From a virus (taxonomy: Duplodnaviria; Caudoviricetes), in the IMG/VR virus record IMGVR_UViG_3300029959_000011, positions 4,978-68,977 of that record: a stretch of 64,000 nt of DNA; one strand, given 5' to 3'. The notes beneath the pieces are model-generated. The model was not told the DNA's origin. It saw only the letters and a program-made list of their open reading frames with translations, and did not search any database. Within the stretch, counting starts at the first letter, position 1. Every line of letters begins with the position of its first letter. The position numbers and the translations under genes were made by a program. Below are positions 21,166-54,901 of this stretch, one piece after another.

Positions 21166-21211
21166 TAGTAGTATAAAATAGCAAACTATAAATAGGATTG
21201 TAGTATGAACA

Positions 21212-21290
21212 AAAAAACAACGGATAGAGCTAAATCGCAGGGCAAAGAAGATACAGGAGAAGCCCTGCGTTTTTGCTCGTGTTATGCGCA
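21212..21290 (+). mobile_element. attC-like hairpin (left boundary of head-operon cassette)
   Basis: AAAAAACAAC-GGATA-GAGCTAAATCGCAGGGC..GCCCTGCGTTTTTGCTC-GT-GTTATGCGCA. Confidence 0.55.
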
Positions 21291-21318
21291 GTCTAAGGAC
21301 TCCAAATCACCGACTGGG

Positions 21319-22065
21319 ATGACCGAAACTAACGACGGGTTGAAAGAAACAAATGAAGATACGATTTACTTGCAATTTCAAGAAGGCTGTCTTGAAAAAT
21401 TAAGGCAAATTGATGAAGAAGTCAAAGAACTTATCAAGAAATTGCCTAAATCACTTGCTATTACTGTCAATAGGTTTCTTGACAGTGATCGTTTCCTTGA
21501 CCATGCTCTTAACCTTGAAATGATTAGTTCTCCCACAGATCTCACAATCACATATATTATCTCCGCAAGTGAGTGCTACCTTGAACTTATTTCCGCAATA
21601 AAGACAGGTGACTATGCTATTATCAAGCCATCTCTTGATTTGTTTGGTGCTGGGCATACTCCCTCCAAGTTTGAGGTTGATTTAAGAAATTTAACAAAAC
21701 AAAACATGAAAGACAAGAACAAAGAAATCCATAAGAAGTTATTACAGGATGTGGATAAGAAACTCCAAAGCGAAACCGAGAAAACGGGGATGACCTTAAC
21801 TAACGATATTAAGAAAGTAAAAATGGATGAAAAAAAAGAATTTAATATATTTAGAGAAGGATATATCGAGGAATCAAATAAATATAGAGAGTGGAGAAAA
21901 GAAAAAATACCAGAAGAGTTTGAAACAACAGAATTTATAGTTCTCGCTATGGATAATTTAATTTCCCATTGTGCATATCCAGAACTCTATATAAAATGGG
22001 TTGAAGTTTATAATCATATAGTGAAAAAACATAATTTAACACTAATGGAAAAACCTATCAATTAA
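21319..22065 (+). CDS. Hypothetical helical protein (cassette cargo)
   Basis: Long ORF; ATG 21319 preferred because the upstream in-frame part is the hairpin. Confidence 0.55.
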   Translation: MTETNDGLKETNEDTIYLQFQEGCLEKLRQIDEEVKELIKKLPKSLAITVNRFLDSDRFLDHALNLEMISSPTDLTITYIISASECYLELISAIKTGDYAIIKPSLDLFGAGHTPSKFEVDLRNLTKQNMKDKNKEIHKKLLQDVDKKLQSETEKTGMTLTNDIKKVKMDEKKEFNIFREGYIEESNKYREWRKEKIPEEFETTEFIVLAMDNLISHCAYPELYIKWVEVYNHIVKKHNLTLMEKPIN

Positions 22066-22677: not shown

Positions 22678-22745
22678 TACTCCCTCCTTTTTTTATCCTT
22701 TCTATCCTAATATCTTCTATCCCTATTCTATCCCACTCTATGGAG

Positions 22746-22804
22746 TGCGCATAACAAGCGATAAATGAAGTTTACAATTTTATTTATCGCATCTTATTTT
22801 TTGC
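22746..22804 (+). mobile_element. attC-like hairpin (right boundary of head-operon cassette)
   Basis: TGCGCATAAC-AA-GCGATAAAT..ATTTATCGC-ATC-TTATTTTTTGC; first 10 nt are the reverse complement of 21281-21290. Confidence 0.55.
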
Positions 22805-41339: not shown

Positions 41340-41936
41340 TTAAGACCTCTCAATTATATGTTTGTAAATCGCATAGCATAGCTCAATATCGTACTGCGCA
41401 TCATGCAATTTAGTTTCGTCAACTTCAATGCCTAAATAGCGTGCTACCGTGCGTTGCTGGAAATTAGCTAAATTACTTCGTGATGACATTAAATACCAAG
41501 ACGCTAATACCATTACATCTATACTGTCTGACCAGAACCAAGACCCGAAGAAATTGCCGTATTCAGCCTCTTTAGGTGTAGTAGCATTCTGCGTGAAAAA
41601 AGCCCTAAAGAACTGATTATCGAAACTTGCGTTATTATATCCCATTAAGTGGAATTTATCAAATTTATCGAATTTATCCACATACTTGCCAAGCATTCTT
41701 TCCAGCTTATAAAACACTTCGCTCATTTCAGGGTATGCTAAAATCTGCTCTTTAGTCACATTACCTACTTTTAGTGCTTCTTCTTCAATCAACGCATCTT
41801 TGTACGGCTTAACCTTATAGTCGAATTTCTCCATTATAAGACCGTTTTCGATTATCATACCTGAAATCTGATGCACGCCATTCTTCCAGAATTTTACTCC
41901 TGTAGTCTCCAAGTCATATAAAAATATTTTTTCCAT
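41340..41936 (-). CDS. DEDDh 3'-5' exonuclease (DnaQ/epsilon-like)
   Basis: YDLETTG, GYNNASFD, LHDAQYD. Confidence 0.9.
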   Translation of the reverse strand: MEKIFLYDLETTGVKFWKNGVHQISGMIIENGLIMEKFDYKVKPYKDALIEEEALKVGNVTKEQILAYPEMSEVFYKLERMLGKYVDKFDKFDKFHLMGYNNASFDNQFFRAFFTQNATTPKEAEYGNFFGSWFWSDSIDVMVLASWYLMSSRSNLANFQQRTVARYLGIEVDETKLHDAQYDIELCYAIYKHIIERS

Positions 41937-42946
41937 TATTTACCCCTTAATTTATCTACTGCCTGACTATAACTCAAATTGTAATACTTCATTACGAAAC
42001 TTATTACATCGCCACTTGCGCCACAGCCAAAACACTTGAATACTTTTTTGGCAGGACTGACTGAGAATGACGCTGTTTTCTCATCGTGGAATGGGCATTT
42101 AGCTTTATTATGCTTATTTAGACCGATTATGCTATCTATTATTTCTACTATATTAGCCTTAATATCGTCCGTATTCTCGTATTCTTTCTTGACTAATTCC
42201 CGTTTATGCTCAACAGGTATATGAATTAAATCTGCTTTCTCAATCAAATCGCCCAATTTCTCTTTTGCGTTATTGGTAGTAAGTATAAATTCGTCAGGAT
42301 CAAGCTCATCAGGAAGATTAACTATTCGTGGGTATCGCAATTCGGCTTCTTTAAATAACTTTGTCGCTCGTATGCAGGCTAATTTGCCAGCTTCGTCGCC
42401 ATCGTATAATAAAACTACTTTTCTGGTTATGTGTTTTAAATAATCAATATGATCTACTGTCAATGCTGTACCGATAGTAGCAACTGTATTAGTAAATCCG
42501 ATAGAGTGCATACGCAGGCAGTCAATCTGACCTTCGACTATAATGATATATTGCTTCATCAGAATCGCCTGCGTATTCAACCCATACAAGATAAGACTTT
42601 TCTTAAAATACGGTGTTTCGGCTGTATTCATATATTTACCGTACTCTTCACCTTCTTTAGTTACCGCTCTGCCGGAAAAGCCTACTATCTTATTCAAATA
42701 CTTTATCGGGAACATCAGACGATTAAAGAAAACGCATCGTAACTCGCCTTTATCGTTCAATTTAGCCATCCCGAACTCAATCAATTTATCGGCAGGCATG
42801 ATTTTGAGCAAATTAGGCAAATCGTTAAAGCCTGCATAACCGATAATATTATCGCTAATCATACTATCGGTTAATTTGCGCAATTTAACATATTTTTCGA
42901 TATGCTTGATTTGGCTATTGTAATATTTGGCGATTGAGGTTAACAC
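41936..42946 (-). CDS. dnaG: DnaG-type primase with C-terminal CHC2 zinc finger
   Basis: NRLMFPI..GFSGRA..KYMNTAET; Toprim VEGQIDC, YDGDEAG, DPDEF; CPFHDEKTASF..CFGC at the C-terminus. Confidence 0.9.
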   Translation of the reverse strand: MLTSIAKYYNSQIKHIEKYVKLRKLTDSMISDNIIGYAGFNDLPNLLKIMPADKLIEFGMAKLNDKGELRCVFFNRLMFPIKYLNKIVGFSGRAVTKEGEEYGKYMNTAETPYFKKSLILYGLNTQAILMKQYIIIVEGQIDCLRMHSIGFTNTVATIGTALTVDHIDYLKHITRKVVLLYDGDEAGKLACIRATKLFKEAELRYPRIVNLPDELDPDEFILTTNNAKEKLGDLIEKADLIHIPVEHKRELVKKEYENTDDIKANIVEIIDSIIGLNKHNKAKCPFHDEKTASFSVSPAKKVFKCFGCGASGDVISFVMKYYNLSYSQAVDKLRGK

Positions 42947-47850: not shown

Positions 47851-48759
47851 TTAATATTCAATATCATCATCTTCTTCACCACTCAATACTTCACTTACTA
47901 ATTCAGGCAATGTCACTTCGCCAAGCATACCTGCCTTTTTCAGTACCCAATACGGAGTTTCGGGCTTTGCAAATATATCGTCAATATAATCCATATAGCC
48001 TTTAATATGTTTCGTTTTATTGTAGTCAATTATGCGTTCTAATGCCTTAAAGTAATCACGCCTGCCCACTTCTATCCAATCCTCATTCAGTTCCATTATA
48101 AAACAGTCAAATGGCTCGGTTTTCTCTACAAACATAAAATAGAACGGCTTTCTTATTCCGGTAACTGCCTCATATACATCAATATACCACGCTGCCTGTA
48201 TGTCATACCGAAAATTCTCGATTGCCTTAATGCACGCCTGCTCGCTTGCTGATTTGCAGGTTTTTAAATCCCACAATCCTAACGCATTATCTATGTCAGG
48301 TCTGCATTTGGCTGACACACCATTGAACTCATCTATCAAGTAGGACTGTTCAAATGTACTGCAAGCCATGATTTCCCGTACAGGGAAGCGACCTCCTTTA
48401 GTATAGCTTAATAATGATTCACGCATACCCTCCATCCGCTCAAGATTGTCTGATTTGACTAATTCCCTACTGCCTGCTATTATTTTATGGTTAGCGAGCC
48501 ATTGTTTATTTTTGCCTTCTGTCATTGTACTATCAGGATTAGGTCGTTCGCTCATTTCAATAAAATAATATTCACGCTCGTAATTTGCAGGCTCTAAGAA
48601 GAAGCTATGAAACATTGTGCCGAATTTCTGATCGGTTGTCGGCTCTCCATGAGGCTTAAGATATTCCTTAATTGATTTATACGCATTTCTTACTTTAGAA
48701 CTGCCCTCATATTTAGTCATTCCGTGATATTCAGCATTACTTATTGTCAGAATTGGCAT
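47851..48759 (-). CDS. PD-(D/E)XK exonuclease (RecE/ExoVIII-like, DUF3799-type)
   Basis: YH..SS, FGTMFH, KCRPD..DLKT, YDIQAAWY, FMFVEK. Confidence 0.85.
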   Translation of the reverse strand: MPILTISNAEYHGMTKYEGSSKVRNAYKSIKEYLKPHGEPTTDQKFGTMFHSFFLEPANYEREYYFIEMSERPNPDSTMTEGKNKQWLANHKIIAGSRELVKSDNLERMEGMRESLLSYTKGGRFPVREIMACSTFEQSYLIDEFNGVSAKCRPDIDNALGLWDLKTCKSASEQACIKAIENFRYDIQAAWYIDVYEAVTGIRKPFYFMFVEKTEPFDCFIMELNEDWIEVGRRDYFKALERIIDYNKTKHIKGYMDYIDDIFAKPETPYWVLKKAGMLGEVTLPELVSEVLSGEEDDDIEY

Positions 48760-49191: not shown

Positions 49192-49560
49192 TATTACTCC
49201 TTAATTACTTGTTTGCTTTTTTCGATTATAGCTTCTAAATTTTAAAACCCTTTTTCTTAAAGTATTCAATTAAAAACTTATCTATTTCTTTTAACGATTC
49301 CATTATTCATCTCCTCGTATTTAATTTATTCGTAAAAATCAGTACCGTCATCATGCTCTTCAAACCAATAATCATCTTGCCATTTGCCTTCAAGCCATGC
49401 GACTAAAAATGTTGAAAATATTATTATTGCTGTTAAAATTATTACTGTTAAAATTATTTCCATATAAACTCCAAAATCAAAAAGAACAACATAGCTATAG
49501 CACAAAAACATAAACATACAATCCATGCTATATATACGAATTTTCTATCTTTATCTATGC

Positions 49561-50133
49561 TCATTTGCATTCCTGATTTTTAATAAAACAATTTATTTCT
49601 TCATCAAGTTTTTCGTGCAGTGATTTTGATAATTCTTCTATCGTTTCATAAAGCGAATCAACATGAATTGCATTATCGAATTTCATATATTCATCCGCAG
49701 TTCCAATCCTTGCTTTGCATTGTTCGCATTCACAATAATTGGCATAATCACCGAAAATGTTTTTAATAACTACTTTTCGCAAGCTAATACCATTTGTTGA
49801 TCTATTATAATAATAGGTATTACCTACAATAATAGATTTCTTGCCTTCCAACATTTCTTTATGGTATTTTTCTCCAAAGGCTTGAAGTTCTAAGTAACTT
49901 AAATTTTCTGATTTCATCGTTTCTTTGTTTTCAGTCAATTTCATTATATAGTCAACTATTTCGATTGTAACCCTTTCGTCATCGAATCTGTCAACTATAT
50001 ATGAAGCATTTTCGTCATCATCGGCATCGTCGTCAAATTCATAATTTTCAAAATAACCAGAAGCAATGATACTTGCGATTTCATTTGATATTTGCTCTTT
50101 AGTTGGTGTGATTTTTTCATTTGGATTAGTCAT
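49561..50133 (-). CDS. Hypothetical acidic protein
   Basis: RBS AGGAG; downstream of boxed promoter. Confidence 0.55.
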   Translation of the reverse strand: MTNPNEKITPTKEQISNEIASIIASGYFENYEFDDDADDDENASYIVDRFDDERVTIEIVDYIMKLTENKETMKSENLSYLELQAFGEKYHKEMLEGKKSIIVGNTYYYNRSTNGISLRKVVIKNIFGDYANYCECEQCKARIGTADEYMKFDNAIHVDSLYETIEELSKSLHEKLDEEINCFIKNQECK

Positions 50134-50159: not shown

Positions 50160-50202
50160 AATATACTACGGATTTCGTAGGATTGCTATGATTTTTGTCA
50201 TA
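50160..50202 (-). promoter_or_regulatory. Palindromic box plus promoter
   Basis: TATGACAAAAATCATA overlapping TAGCAA-17-TATATT. Confidence 0.65.
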
Positions 50203-50249
50203 TAATAGCTATTTGTCCAGTTTTTTGTGCATTTTACTGGACATTTTGG

Positions 50250-51390: not shown

Positions 51391-51924
51391 TTATCGAATT
51401 ACCAACGATCCGCAAATTCCCTCCAATTCCTCGTATTCAACTAATAGACCGCAATTTGGTTTATTCTCTTTATTGATTGTATATTTAGCTATGTCTTTAT
51501 GATAGCCTGTAATATAATATTCGCCTTTAGGATATTTCGACATCATTAAATCCTTTTTAACAAACACTCTATCGCCTATTTTATATTTCGGCTGTATATT
51601 ATGCGCTTTGACCCATGTTCTTACATTTTCCTCTATTTTATCCCGTCTGAAATGATCTATATCGTCAAGCCAGTTAATAAAATCACCTGTAAAATTATAA
51701 TCAGCATTATAGCTATTATCCATACCCTTTGCTATCTCAAATCCGCTGTCGTGCCAATTAGCGTCTTTCAAATCTATTATTATTTCCGCAGGATCGCTAT
51801 TCGACCAGTCTTCAGCAATTATCTCATCTGCCATTTCTTTGTATATTTGAGTTAATTGCTCATCTGTTAAAAACTCAGGTCGTTCCTTATTAAATATTTC
51901 TCGCTCTTCAAATAATTTATCCAT
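51391..51924 (-). CDS. Hypothetical protein
   Basis: RBS AGGAG. Confidence 0.55.
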   Translation of the reverse strand: MDKLFEEREIFNKERPEFLTDEQLTQIYKEMADEIIAEDWSNSDPAEIIIDLKDANWHDSGFEIAKGMDNSYNADYNFTGDFINWLDDIDHFRRDKIEENVRTWVKAHNIQPKYKIGDRVFVKKDLMMSKYPKGEYYITGYHKDIAKYTINKENKPNCGLLVEYEELEGICGSLVIR

Positions 51925-52075
51925 TTCTTGCTCCTTTTGATAATTTGATTTTTTTTTTGCATCATACCTCCGTTTTTTAGGGTTATTACACTGCTTCTAA
52001 ATTACTATTATTTCAAGATTTTGGATAAGGTCGAAAAGGCTGTATTTCCTTTTTCCCGTTGTTGTGCGAAATAAC

Positions 52076-52897
52076 TTAACATTCGGTTTTCTCTTCCTGA
52101 ACAAATAGGTTATTTAACAGCGGATGCAGTCTTTTCTTAATGATTTGACAGTATTCTTCACTGATTTCACTGCCTATGTAGTTTCGATTAGAAGCAATCG
52201 CAGCTTTCGCAGTAGTTCCGCTACCCATAAACGGATCGTAAACTAAATCACCCTCGTTACTCCAGCTTATTATATGATCATAAGCAAGCCTTTCAGGAAA
52301 TATTGCAGGGTGTTCAAAGGCAACGCTGTCTTTTGTTGTATGGGATCCTCCTGAATTATAATGCCATATATTATACTTTATTTTTGTTTCTTTAACAGTC
52401 ATAGTATTCCGGCGGGTCCTAAATGCAGAATTTTGAGACCGACTTCCTTTTTCTGTCTCTGGCCGGTCGAGTGAATTTCCATAGTATTGACATTTTTCAA
52501 GCATTGGATTAAATGTATTCGGTTTGCCTTTGCTTAACACGAACATATACTCAAAATTCTGCTCATACCTGTTATGATTTAATGGCATTTTATCTGTAGC
52601 ATATATCATTGTATCGTGCAAATTAAATCCGATTTCCTTAAAATACAAGGCTTGCTTAAAACTCGTTCCTGATTCGCTTCCGTTTATGGTAGCATCTCCG
52701 ACCACCCAGACCACAACTCCGCCATGTTTTGTTACTCTGTATAATTCTCTTGCGACTGCTTCAAAATCGAAACTAAAGCCGTTGTAAACTCTAAGATTAT
52801 CGTAAGGTGGGCTTGTTACTGTCAAATCTATAAACGCATCAGGCATCCGCTTCATAGTGTCGAGATTGCTTTCGCAGTATATCTTATTTATCTCCAT
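52076..52897 (-). CDS. Beta-class DNA methyltransferase (SPPY, likely N4-cytosine)
   Basis: DLTVTSPPY, HPAIFP, VYDPFMGSGTT. Confidence 0.9.
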   Translation of the reverse strand: MEINKIYCESNLDTMKRMPDAFIDLTVTSPPYDNLRVYNGFSFDFEAVARELYRVTKHGGVVVWVVGDATINGSESGTSFKQALYFKEIGFNLHDTMIYATDKMPLNHNRYEQNFEYMFVLSKGKPNTFNPMLEKCQYYGNSLDRPETEKGSRSQNSAFRTRRNTMTVKETKIKYNIWHYNSGGSHTTKDSVAFEHPAIFPERLAYDHIISWSNEGDLVYDPFMGSGTTAKAAIASNRNYIGSEISEEYCQIIKKRLHPLLNNLFVQEEKTEC

Positions 52898-52914
52898 TAA
52901 AACCTCATTATTCC

Positions 52915-53049
52915 TTCGCATAACAATTGAAAAATGCAGGGTCTATTATTGCATCGTTCATCTGTCTGTCTTTATTTGGTATTTTCAACTCATTATTTCT
53001 TTTCACCTTGCGCATAGTTCCCTCTTTTTTCAGTTTTCCGTTGATCGAA
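52915..53049 (-). mobile_element. attC-like site between the two methyltransferase genes
   Basis: Minus strand TTCGATCAAC..TGAAAAAAGAGGG..CCCTGCATTTTTCA-ATT-GTTATGCGAA. Confidence 0.55.
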
Positions 53050-53071
53050 ATACTTAACGATAATTGAGACT

Positions 53072-53857
53072 TCATAGGTTAAACAACCTTTCCGTTTGAG
53101 AATTTGCGAATTGTTGTATTCGGTTTCTTGCAATTTCACAGTATTTTGCCTCTTTTTCTATCAAGATATATTTGCGATTTGTTTCCAAACAAGCCAATCC
53201 GGTCGTGCCACTTCCAGCACAGTTATCGAGAACGATCTCGCCTTCGTTGGTATAGGTGCGGATAAGATACTTGAAAAGTTCAACAGGCTTTTGTGTGGGA
53301 TGTTGCGTGCCGTTTCTTTTATCGTCTTTATTGATGTGTAATATATTAGTTGGATACTTATACCATTGTTCGGCTTTTGATTTTCTTATTATCAAATTAT
53401 TCCGATGATTCTGAATATTATTACCCCAACTTTTACTGTCGTTTTTGCGATAACATTTCTTGTATTCGTCTTCAGTTCTTTTTGTCATTACTGGGTAATA
53501 CTTAACCTTATTTATTCCAAATACTAAAACATCTTCATTCGCTTTCATTGGCATATATTGAGCGCCGAACGCTCCTGTCGGCCTATTTTTTATCCACTGC
53601 CATTGATGCTTAAACATTTTCGGATTACTCATCACCAAAGCCGAAGTAAAAGGCTGGCTTGCTGTCAATACAATAGCCCCGTTGTCTTTTATTATCCGCT
53701 TATACTGCGCCCAAAGTGGCTCAAACGGAATTATTACATCCCACTTACACGCAGTAGTACCGTAAGGCAAATCGCATAAAATCATATCTACTGATTTATC
53801 TGGAATCAGAGGCATTACCTCTAAGCAGTCACCTTGATATACTTGATTTAATTCCAT
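53072..53857 (-). CDS. Beta-class DNA methyltransferase (DLPY, likely N6-adenine)
   Basis: MILCDLPYG, HPTQKPV, VLDNCAGSGTT. Confidence 0.9.
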   Translation of the reverse strand: MELNQVYQGDCLEVMPLIPDKSVDMILCDLPYGTTACKWDVIIPFEPLWAQYKRIIKDNGAIVLTASQPFTSALVMSNPKMFKHQWQWIKNRPTGAFGAQYMPMKANEDVLVFGINKVKYYPVMTKRTEDEYKKCYRKNDSKSWGNNIQNHRNNLIIRKSKAEQWYKYPTNILHINKDDKRNGTQHPTQKPVELFKYLIRTYTNEGEIVLDNCAGSGTTGLACLETNRKYILIEKEAKYCEIARNRIQQFANSQTERLFNL

Positions 53858-54033
53858 TTGCAAATTCTCCTCAATTATCTATACTTCGTTCAACAACGGC
53901 AAAATGACATAAAAACAACCTACTCATTTGACTGGGAATATTATTTGTTGTATTCTGTTCATGCTGATTTACGCTCCGTTTTACGCTTTTAGCCTGTGAC
54001 CGATAAAACCATAAGCCTAAAAATTATAAGCTC

Positions 54034-54270
54034 TTAGGTTATTAGTTCTACAAATATTTCTATTTGAGTTTCTATATACTTTTTTGCATCGTGGATTGGT
54101 AGCTTATTTATTAAATTTTCGTTAATTAAAAAGCGCAAGCTGCCACCAAACATGTGATAAGCGACACATTTTTTCTTATAATGAGAAAATCTTATTAACT
54201 CTCTCTCATATTCGTCTATTAATGTCGAACTATCTTTTCCGTCAATCCACTTGCATTTATCTTTTACCAT
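54034..54270 (-). CDS. Hypothetical protein
   Basis: RBS GGAG. Confidence 0.5.
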   Translation of the reverse strand: MVKDKCKWIDGKDSSTLIDEYERELIRFSHYKKKCVAYHMFGGSLRFLINENLINKLPIHDAKKYIETQIEIFVELIT

Positions 54271-54341
54271 ACTTTCACTCCGCTTATAATTTTCTTTACG
54301 GCTTCCGGGTTATATCAACGGCAAACAGAAAGCTATATCCT

Positions 54342-54791
54342 TTAAATGATTTCGTCATTTTCGGTATCATCAGATTCGCCTTTACCGTCAGATTCTTCTT
54401 TCTCAATATATTCATCATTCTCGCTTATATCCTCCAAATCGTCATCAAGCACATTTGCTATATCCTTTAATTCATTTGATTTACTTATGGATTCGTCAGA
54501 TATAATAGTTTTAACAGGCTCAATAACAGGATCAGTGGTCTTAGCAGGTTTGACAATTTTCGCAATCTCAGTAGTTTTCGTAATCTCAGTAGTTTTCGCT
54601 ATTTCGCCTTTCTTATCCGCTAATATAGTAAATTCGATTGTAATTTTATACTCGAATTTATCGCCTTTCCTGAAATGAGCATTACGCAGATTATTATAGC
54701 TTTCTCCAAAATAGTTTGCCGCTTCGTTCATTGTATTAAATTGGAAAATTACAGCATTGTTTGATTTGTTATTAGCTATTACTTTTTTCAT
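54342..54791 (-). CDS. NUMOD1-like HTH protein with acidic tail
   Basis: FNTMNEAANYFG; C-terminal D/E-rich low complexity. Confidence 0.45.
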   Translation of the reverse strand: MKKVIANNKSNNAVIFQFNTMNEAANYFGESYNNLRNAHFRKGDKFEYKITIEFTILADKKGEIAKTTEITKTTEIAKIVKPAKTTDPVIEPVKTIISDESISKSNELKDIANVLDDDLEDISENDEYIEKEESDGKGESDDTENDEII

Positions 54792-54901
54792 TTGACTGCT
54801 CCTTTACATCCTTACATTCCTTTATAGTATTACAAGTATATAATTCACATCCGCATATATAATTGGGATCATTATACTCGCATTCTTTATTTATACAGCG
54901 A

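Follow-up and report, generated by a model that had tools for sequence, protein, structure and literature searches.

In the phage genome recorded in IMG/VR as IMGVR_UViG_3300029959_000011, a small gene (gene X) and two DNA methyltransferase genes (MTase-1 and MTase-2) form an array on the minus strand, each enclosed by the two arms of an inverted repeat. We interpret gene X, MTase-1 together with a 55-codon open reading frame (ORF) that follows it, and MTase-2 as a decayed array of three cassettes of the integron-like kind found in phages, an interpretation that we hold with about even confidence. The virus record is 68,977 bp long and is rated complete by CheckV; the window analyzed here covers its bases 4978-68977 (64,000 nucleotides; G+C content 35.7%), and coordinates are those of the window unless another locus is named. 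The first-pass annotation of this DNA had suggested an uncharacterised cassette system in phage genomes. That suggestion has been overtaken by the description of phage clusters with methyltransferase cargo (Qi et al. 2023, Front Microbiol, PMC9892861), and the window is not a new system but a weak, degenerate further example of these published cassette arrays.

Both methyltransferases are N6/N4 DNA methyltransferases of the family PF01555 (N6_N4_Mtase), in which membership requires a full-length match above the gathering score of 26.7. MTase-1 (53072-53848, minus strand, 258 aa) matches the family over its full length at 102.4 bits (E 4e-29), and MTase-2 (52076-52897, minus strand, 273 aa) does so at 153.8 bits (E 9e-45). 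MTase-1 also matches NCBIfam models of adenine-specific methyltransferases, with scores below their cut-offs, and an identical MTase-1 protein is carried by five contigs. The reading frame of MTase-2 is open back to its first in-frame ATG, at 52921, which lies inside the core GTTATGCGAA; the ATG at 52897, preceded by GAGG, is the likelier start. Family scans recognized no restriction enzyme beside either gene, and both enzymes are therefore orphan methyltransferases, presumably with an anti-restriction role. Upstream of them, gene X (54034-54270, minus strand, 78 aa, from the ORF list) is the first bracketed unit; it has no match in Pfam, PHROG or NCBIfam. The 55-codon ORF (52908-53075, minus strand) is a putative gene that fills the 135-bp stretch between the two methyltransferase genes. 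Its ATG overlaps the stop codon of MTase-1 (ATGA), and scans of Pfam, PHROG and NCBIfam gave no family match.

The arms of the three brackets combine a shared outer part with an inner part that differs from gene to gene. Gene X, on the minus strand, has a 5' arm (54281-54334) with site E (54314-54331, TTTCTGTTTGCCGTTGAT) and a perfect 12-mer, AAAATTATAAGC (54282-54293), which pairs with GCTTATAATTTT (54020-54031) in the 3' arm (53984-54032). The 5' arm of the MTase-1 bracket (53868-53923, minus strand) contains site A (53882-53904) with the core GTTGAACGAA (53885-53894), as well as a perfect 10-mer, GATAATTGAG (53870-53879), that extends into the Shine-Dalgarno sequence GAGGAG. The corresponding 3' arm (53011-53070, minus strand), located inside the 55-codon ORF, contains site B with the core TTCGATCAAC (53040-53049) and the perfectly complementary partner of the 10-mer, CTCAATTATC (53059-53068). 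MTase-2 lies between site C (52912-52934, minus strand; core GTTATGCGAA, 52915-52924) as the 5' arm and site D (52051-52073; core TTCGCACAAC, 52061-52070) as the 3' arm; site D serves as the 3' arm in the minus-strand reading and, on the plus strand, is the inverted partner of site A (19/23). The outer parts common to the genes read TTTTsCC-GTTG on one side and CAAC-GGrAAAA on the other. Against the core consensus (R' = GTTRRRY, R'' = RYYYAAC), the outer-end cores are GTTGAAC (R', 7/7) and GATCAAC (R'', 6/7) for MTase-1, and GTTATGC (R', 6/7) and GCACAAC (R'', 6/7) for MTase-2, matches so short that they are weak evidence alone. Site E and the third bracketed gene, X, go beyond the first-pass description.

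The brackets stand out against the rest of the window. When the 23-mer of site D was used as a probe, its best non-self matches among the ~128,000 window positions were site A (53882-53904, minus strand, 19/23) and site C (52912-52934, minus strand, 17/23), followed by a match of 15/23; sites A and C are on the gene strand, and each is 15-56 nt upstream of a methyltransferase start. In gapped flank alignments scored against 300 shuffles, the sequences upstream and downstream of MTase-1 form an inverted repeat of 44 nt (z 6.4), and those of gene X form one of 35 nt (z 4.2), within a bracket that spans ~50 nt. The two flanks of MTase-2 give a weaker bracket (20 nt, z 2.2, p 0.04). Inverted similarity also crosses between genes, from upstream of X to downstream of MTase-1 (z 5.1) and from upstream of MTase-1 to downstream of MTase-2 (z 4.0), and all of the significant similarities are inverted, relating one gene's leader to one gene's trailer. 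X, MTase-1 and MTase-2 are the top three of 85 window genes in an ungapped flank test, and MTase-1 ranks first and X third of 90 in the gapped test. The same bracket test was run on 1367 ORFs from 117 sequences (for the most part IMG/VR loci retrieved through the two methyltransferases), and MTase-1 and X of the window both came out in the top 1%. Predicted pairing between leader and trailer amounts to -37.8 kcal/mol for X (z -3.9) and -36.3 kcal/mol for MTase-1 (z -4.4), compared to a median of -16.5 kcal/mol for 46 genes, with MTase-2 third at -24.1 kcal/mol. The second-best gapped flank repeat of the window belongs to gene 49561-50133 (190 aa, no family; score 17; 49479-49533 and 50161-50223), an A-rich, gap-rich alignment with a motif unrelated to the methyltransferase sites.

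The 10-mers to which the first-pass annotation drew attention are at the places it gave on the minus strand (GTTGAACGAA at 53894-53885, TTCGATCAAC at 53049-53040, GTTATGCGAA at 52924-52915 and TTCGCACAAC at 52070-52061), and the pair flanking each methyltransferase is 9/10 complementary, as it had said. The TGAAAAA/TTTTTCA and AGGG/CCCT pairs that it described between the two genes are also present, as is the AAAAGG/CCTTTT stem after MTase-2 (52034-52053, minus strand), a weak 6-bp hairpin of -3.8 kcal/mol (z +0.2). By themselves, the 10-mers are not beyond chance: the pattern GTTRNNCGAA, chosen post hoc, has six matches in the window compared to 3.6 expected, with four of the six in the methyltransferase region, and GTTATGCG occurs four times compared to about two expected. 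They are the tips of the longer inverted repeats.

Homologues of the two methyltransferases are found in hairpin-bounded cassettes that appear intact. The top scorers among the 1367 ORFs were MTase-2 homologues and their neighbors (loci L060, L046, L045, L012 and L020), whose brackets share a 5'-side box, ...GTTAT(G/A)n, and a 3'-side box, ...nCATAAC-G, with a hairpin between neighboring genes. Fifteen such hairpin elements could be aligned. They have invariant ATAACG and TGTTAT boxes and a consensus stem of 17 pairs, 10 of them with compensatory changes, and define a TAAC...GTTA hairpin family. Across 484 kb of phage loci centred on methyltransferases, the covariance model built from these elements (R1) has at least 55 strand-specific matches, and ~380 kb of control phage loci yield none. 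Sites can be dense, with up to 10 in 6.7 kb of an 81-kb contig and nine in a 170-kb contig. R1 also detects both sites of Polaribacter phage P12002L (E 0.004 and 0.015) and more than 150 sites in other loci. Its sites flank MTase-1 homologues at 72-73% identity (L131-L135), and its cassettes hold MTase-2 homologues (55-67% identity) in 13 of 80 loci. In these intact arrays the start of a cassette pairs with that cassette's own end (median anchored score 6, typically ~10 nt) but not with the ends of other cassettes (median 0), and the window brackets show the same complementarity of own ends. Some methyltransferase cassettes have long, near-perfect brackets, namely those of L045 (19 nt), L046, L060 and the phages P12002L and P12002S (23-29 nt). 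P12002S differs from P12002L by one inserted and one replaced block, and the edges of both blocks are at ...AAC boxes.

Two further observations concern the hairpin sites themselves. The loops of canonical sites (L012, L020, L037, L045 and L055) hold conserved stretches, for example TTTAGCACAAA and ACAAATGTTGA, and may therefore carry a signal of their own, such as a promoter or a gene start. In L012 (2737-2898), as in the window (52908-53075), the junction that separates two methyltransferase genes is covered by a small ORF (53-55 codons), which in L012 overlaps a canonical hairpin site (2724-2849). These small ORFs may be by-products of the junctions rather than genes.

The intact family extends to bacteria. 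A scan of bacterial genomes with the subfamily motif returned 109 stretches, nearly all in Bacteroidota, and R1 arrays are likewise present in Bacteroidota genomes. The integron integrase model TIGR02249 found nothing above its cut-off in five array-carrying Bacteroidota genomes, and homologues of a phage Xer-like recombinase occur within 8 kb of an R1 element in ~9-13 of the 109 Bacteroidota loci. This phage protein, a tyrosine recombinase of 298 aa, adjoins another methyltransferase gene in a 170-kb virus record (L154:1183-2079; the record also holds L037), ~12 kb from an array of nine cassette sites. This protein scores 155 bits on the integron-integrase model, in two pieces and below the cut-off of 265, so it appears to lack the IntI-specific insert. 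For the phage of the window, a Bacteroidota host should not simply be assumed, given its strong Shine-Dalgarno sequences.

Several published systems resemble the window in part. Qi et al. (PMC9892861) described 17 phage clusters of attC sites without an integrase (CALINs), among them one in the virulent phage P12002L with two DNA methyltransferases; their clusters include five methyltransferase cassettes in total, and five of six assayed phage attC sites recombined with attI1 through IntI1. Like the P12002L cluster, the window is an integrase-less phage sequence with orphan PF01555 methyltransferases in a same-strand array in the early region, with GTT/AAC cores at gene boundaries and cassette ends that are complementary to each other (over 23-29 nt in the P12002L and P12002S brackets). 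In both, the motif AACAACGG followed by a short hairpin is found at the downstream end of the array, which in the window is after MTase-2. In contrast, the P12002L sites fold (z -2.5 and -2.9) and match R1 while the window junctions do neither, and the 55-codon ORF takes up one of the window junctions. Compared with integron cassettes in general (IntI, attI, and attC sites with R''/L''/L'/R' boxes), there is a GTT-type 5' box, a 3' box ending in AAC, complementarity between the ends, and a junction length (~128-135 nt) within the range of attC sites, but there is no IntI and no significant hairpin, the cores match RYYYAAC or GTTRRRY at only 5-7 of 7 positions, and complementarity extends 20-50 nt past the core compared to ~7 nt in integron cassettes.

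Two other kinds of arrays also share some features with the window. The rAID-1 arrays of Bacteroidales are gene arrays associated with a XerD-like recombinase that have integron-like intergenic repeats (Ross et al. 2019, bioRxiv 10.1101/471110). They share with the R1 arrays co-oriented small genes, repetitive integron-like intergenic elements and a link to a XerD-like recombinase rather than IntI; the window has neither a recombinase nor canonical elements, and the cargo of rAID-1 is immunity genes, not methyltransferases. In the PeSL elements, which are mobile regulatory cassettes of T4-type phages, repeats composed of a promoter and a stem-loop flank shuffled genes. The window is similar in that short, regulatory-looking repeats bound accessory genes in a plastic phage region, with sites A and E overlapping weak sigma-70-like promoters. 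PeSL repeats, however, are direct and contain local stem-loops, whereas those of the window are inverted, bracket each gene and have no significant local stem-loop.

The spacing of the window sites is compatible with an attC array. Core-to-core distances of 135 nt at the MTase-1/MTase-2 junction and ~128 nt at the X/MTase-1 junction are inside the attC range of ~57-141 nt, and the sites are less than 4 kb apart on the same strand, as in the definition of attC arrays and CALINs. The window fits the R1 family by architecture and cargo, but by sequence and structure it does not, and a number of results weigh against a cassette origin. Folded as single-stranded DNA on both strands, the three junctions reach z scores of -0.3 to +1.2 (200 shuffles), no better than shuffled sequence, compared to -2.5 to -5.7 for intact phage sites in the same test; the TGAAAAA/TTTTTCA and AGGG/CCCT pairs do occur in the minimum-energy fold, yet its energy is at the level of random sequence. 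Self-inverted alignment of the MTase-1/MTase-2 junction gives z 1.5 (p 0.12). R1 has no match at the methyltransferase junctions up to an E value of 10 with filters off, and in half-site weight-matrix scans the methyltransferase sites rank only 34th to 190th of ~128,000 positions. No protein in the whole 68,977-bp record matches the tyrosine recombinase family PF00589, which was found in 14 of 14 control genomes. The stretch between the methyltransferase genes, previously taken for an attC-like spacer, is the 55-codon ORF and not intergenic. Gene X has a core of GTTGATA (R', 5/7) in its 5' arm and no AAC core in its 3' arm, and the bracket length of 44-50 nt exceeds the ~10 nt usual in intact cassettes, a difference that simple decay does not explain.

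Comparisons with relatives add to this side of the balance. Homologues were expected to keep the 10-bp cores, and in none of the 84 methyltransferase-homologue loci do the flanks contain the core pattern. The exact window motif, TTTTSCCGTTGTTGNNCGAA, has 10 matches in IMG/VR, all in unrelated coding contexts without a methyltransferase. The closest MTase-1 homologue (77% identity, L002/L130) lacks the cores; in L002, which is on the same contig as L130, it is flanked instead by a perfect 18-bp direct repeat, GATGGAAGTAAGTAATAT (1930-1947 and 2705-2722). The repeat is a copy of the upstream ORF's 3' end, which is why both ORFs end in ...DGSK*, and the homologue looks like an insertion with target duplication rather than a hairpin cassette. 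The phage has no near match among GenBank phages, no IMG/VR relatives of gene X were found, and the neighboring genes 51391-51924 and 47851-48759 have no or only distant relatives there. Of the original claim that each methyltransferase sits in its own attC-like cassette, the inverted-repeat brackets with GTT/AAC cores, the intact hairpin cassettes around homologues and the edges of swapped blocks at ...AAC in P12002S and P12002L remain in favor, while the junction hairpins at shuffle level and the lack of an R1 match and of a tyrosine recombinase do not bear it out. Because R1 does not match, half-site ranks are poor, the motif occurs nowhere relevant and the closest homologue lacks the cores, we do not file the junctions as attC sites or as members of the R1 family and instead read them as a diverged or decayed derivative.

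Regulatory signals and duplication were considered as well. Sites A and E both overlap sigma-70-like sites (9/12), but the registers differ relative to the shared motif, and a promoter explanation was rejected; the count of promoter-like sequences in the region is only modestly above that of shuffles. No terminators were found in the region, and an Rfam scan of 51500-54800, with a database that has no attC family, gave chance matches only. A recent tandem duplication of a methyltransferase with its flanks was also rejected, given the inverted orientation of the repeats and the merely distant relationship of the two enzymes.

Elsewhere in the window, the ends of what the first-pass annotation called the head-operon cassette (21261-21290, plus strand, and 22745-22802) are a far closer match to the canonical L'-R' half-site of the phage cassette family than are the methyltransferase sites, ranking third and sixth of ~128,000 positions with the R' 14-mer. 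Within the window, R1 scores best at 22745-22802 (E 0.57), on a 58-nt hairpin that begins at the right-hand core TGCGCATAAC; the left core is 76 nt inside ORF 21205-22065. A separate feature of the genome is its primase (ORF 41936-42946), in which the DnaG catalytic core and Toprim domains occupy the N-terminal two thirds and the CHC2 zinc finger is at residues 263-333, and therefore C-terminal.

In the intact system, a GTT(A) box stands immediately ahead of each cassette, a (T)AAC box forms the cassette's 3' end, and a folded hairpin site comes next; the opening bases of a cassette pair with those that precede its own (T)AAC box. Cassettes are exchanged at these boxes by a tyrosine recombinase of the IntI or Xer type that acts in trans and comes from a host or another phage. 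If the window does hold decayed cassettes, gene X, MTase-1 with the 55-codon ORF, and MTase-2 would share a common origin with the intact family and would once have been captured, by site-specific recombination, as integron-type cassettes of the kind that Bacteroidota phages and hosts keep in arrays. What survives would be the GTT/AAC ends, the short shared box (TTTTsCC / GGrAAAA) and an unusually long cassette-specific complementarity (20-50 nt), the hairpins having been lost. Given the degenerate hairpins between genes and the lack of an encoded recombinase, the cassettes have presumably become fixed and are no longer mobile.

Decay does not account for overlong brackets (44-50 nt) that outlast the hairpins, and this leaves room for three other explanations. 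The repeats could function in the mRNA, with the 5' leader of a cistron pairing with the stretch just past its stop codon to form a long-range stem that sets processing, stability or translation, in which case a cassette origin would be irrelevant or secondary. Stems that close the 5' end of an RNA on its 3' end exist elsewhere, for instance where hok mRNA folds back on itself or where RNase III stems bracket rRNA. Such a role is suggested by the strength of the sense duplexes of X and MTase-1 relative to the median gene, by the MTase-1 arms pairing 12.6 kcal/mol better in the sense than in the antisense form (-36.3 versus -23.7 kcal/mol, with 7 G-U pairs among 42), by inner arms that differ between genes (AAAATTATAAGC in X, GATAATTGAG in MTase-1) with each perfectly complementary to its own partner, and by the overlap of the MTase-1 arm with GAGG, part of the Shine-Dalgarno sequence. 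However, the antisense form pairs better than the sense form for MTase-2 (-33.1 versus -24.1 kcal/mol), the difference between strands is small for X, and no Rfam family matches. An mRNA stem would also leave unexplained both the GTT/AAC ends and the homologous methyltransferases in hairpin-bounded cassettes. We consider an mRNA role unlikely, but with a real chance of being correct.

Base composition could also be at work, in that A-rich leaders and T-rich trailers in an AT-rich phage may yield spurious complementarity in which a shared motif was recognized post hoc. The 10-mers alone are not significant, another gene, 49561-50133, reaches a score of 17 with an A-rich gapped alignment, the bracket of MTase-2 itself is marginal (z 2.2, p 0.04), and the junctions fold at chance level. 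Nevertheless, the ungapped test puts three neighboring genes in the first three ranks of 85, the X and MTase-1 duplexes are ~12 kcal/mol beyond those of every other gene, and the perfect 12-mer and 10-mer include G and C positions. The rank test with site D is not affected by composition, and its top two matches in the window, sites A and C, have the location and strand that a bracket predicts. Chance thus appears distinctly improbable to us. More doubtful still is another kind of repeat-bounded element, either passenger genes between terminal inverted repeats that are mobilised in trans, as in mobile insertion cassettes and MITEs, or invertible segments that switch methyltransferase expression. 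The inverted repeats do enclose whole cistrons including ribosome-binding sites, and sites A and D (19/23) also enclose the whole two-methyltransferase module. Against such elements, no flanking target-site duplications are visible, tyrosine recombinases are absent (the search did not extend to transposases or serine invertases), the similarity between arms is only ~70-83%, a poor value for the sites of an invertase or transposase, and the same arms carry the GTT/AAC grammar of the cassette family.

A cassette origin may also be combined with function. The long inverted repeats that bracket genes over 20-50 nt, past the GTT/AAC boxes, could be a functional feature of phage methyltransferase cassettes rather than a sign of decay, persisting here without the classical hairpin; we think this improbable. 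One possible form is a recombination-site stem extending past the crossover point, on which a non-IntI (Xer-like) recombinase would act. Another possibility is a clamp between the 5' and 3' ends of the mRNA that limits methyltransferase dosage.

Orphan methyltransferases are a means by which phages escape host restriction. If these genes travel as single-gene cassettes, one recombination step would change which restriction systems a phage evades. The array also raises the question of why some methyltransferase cassettes bear bracketing repeats far longer than recombination seems to need. Read as a decayed array, the window shows cassettes after the loss of their hairpins, to which structure-based detectors are blind while the complementarity from end to end is still recognizable, and counts of cassette-derived genes in phages may therefore be underestimates.

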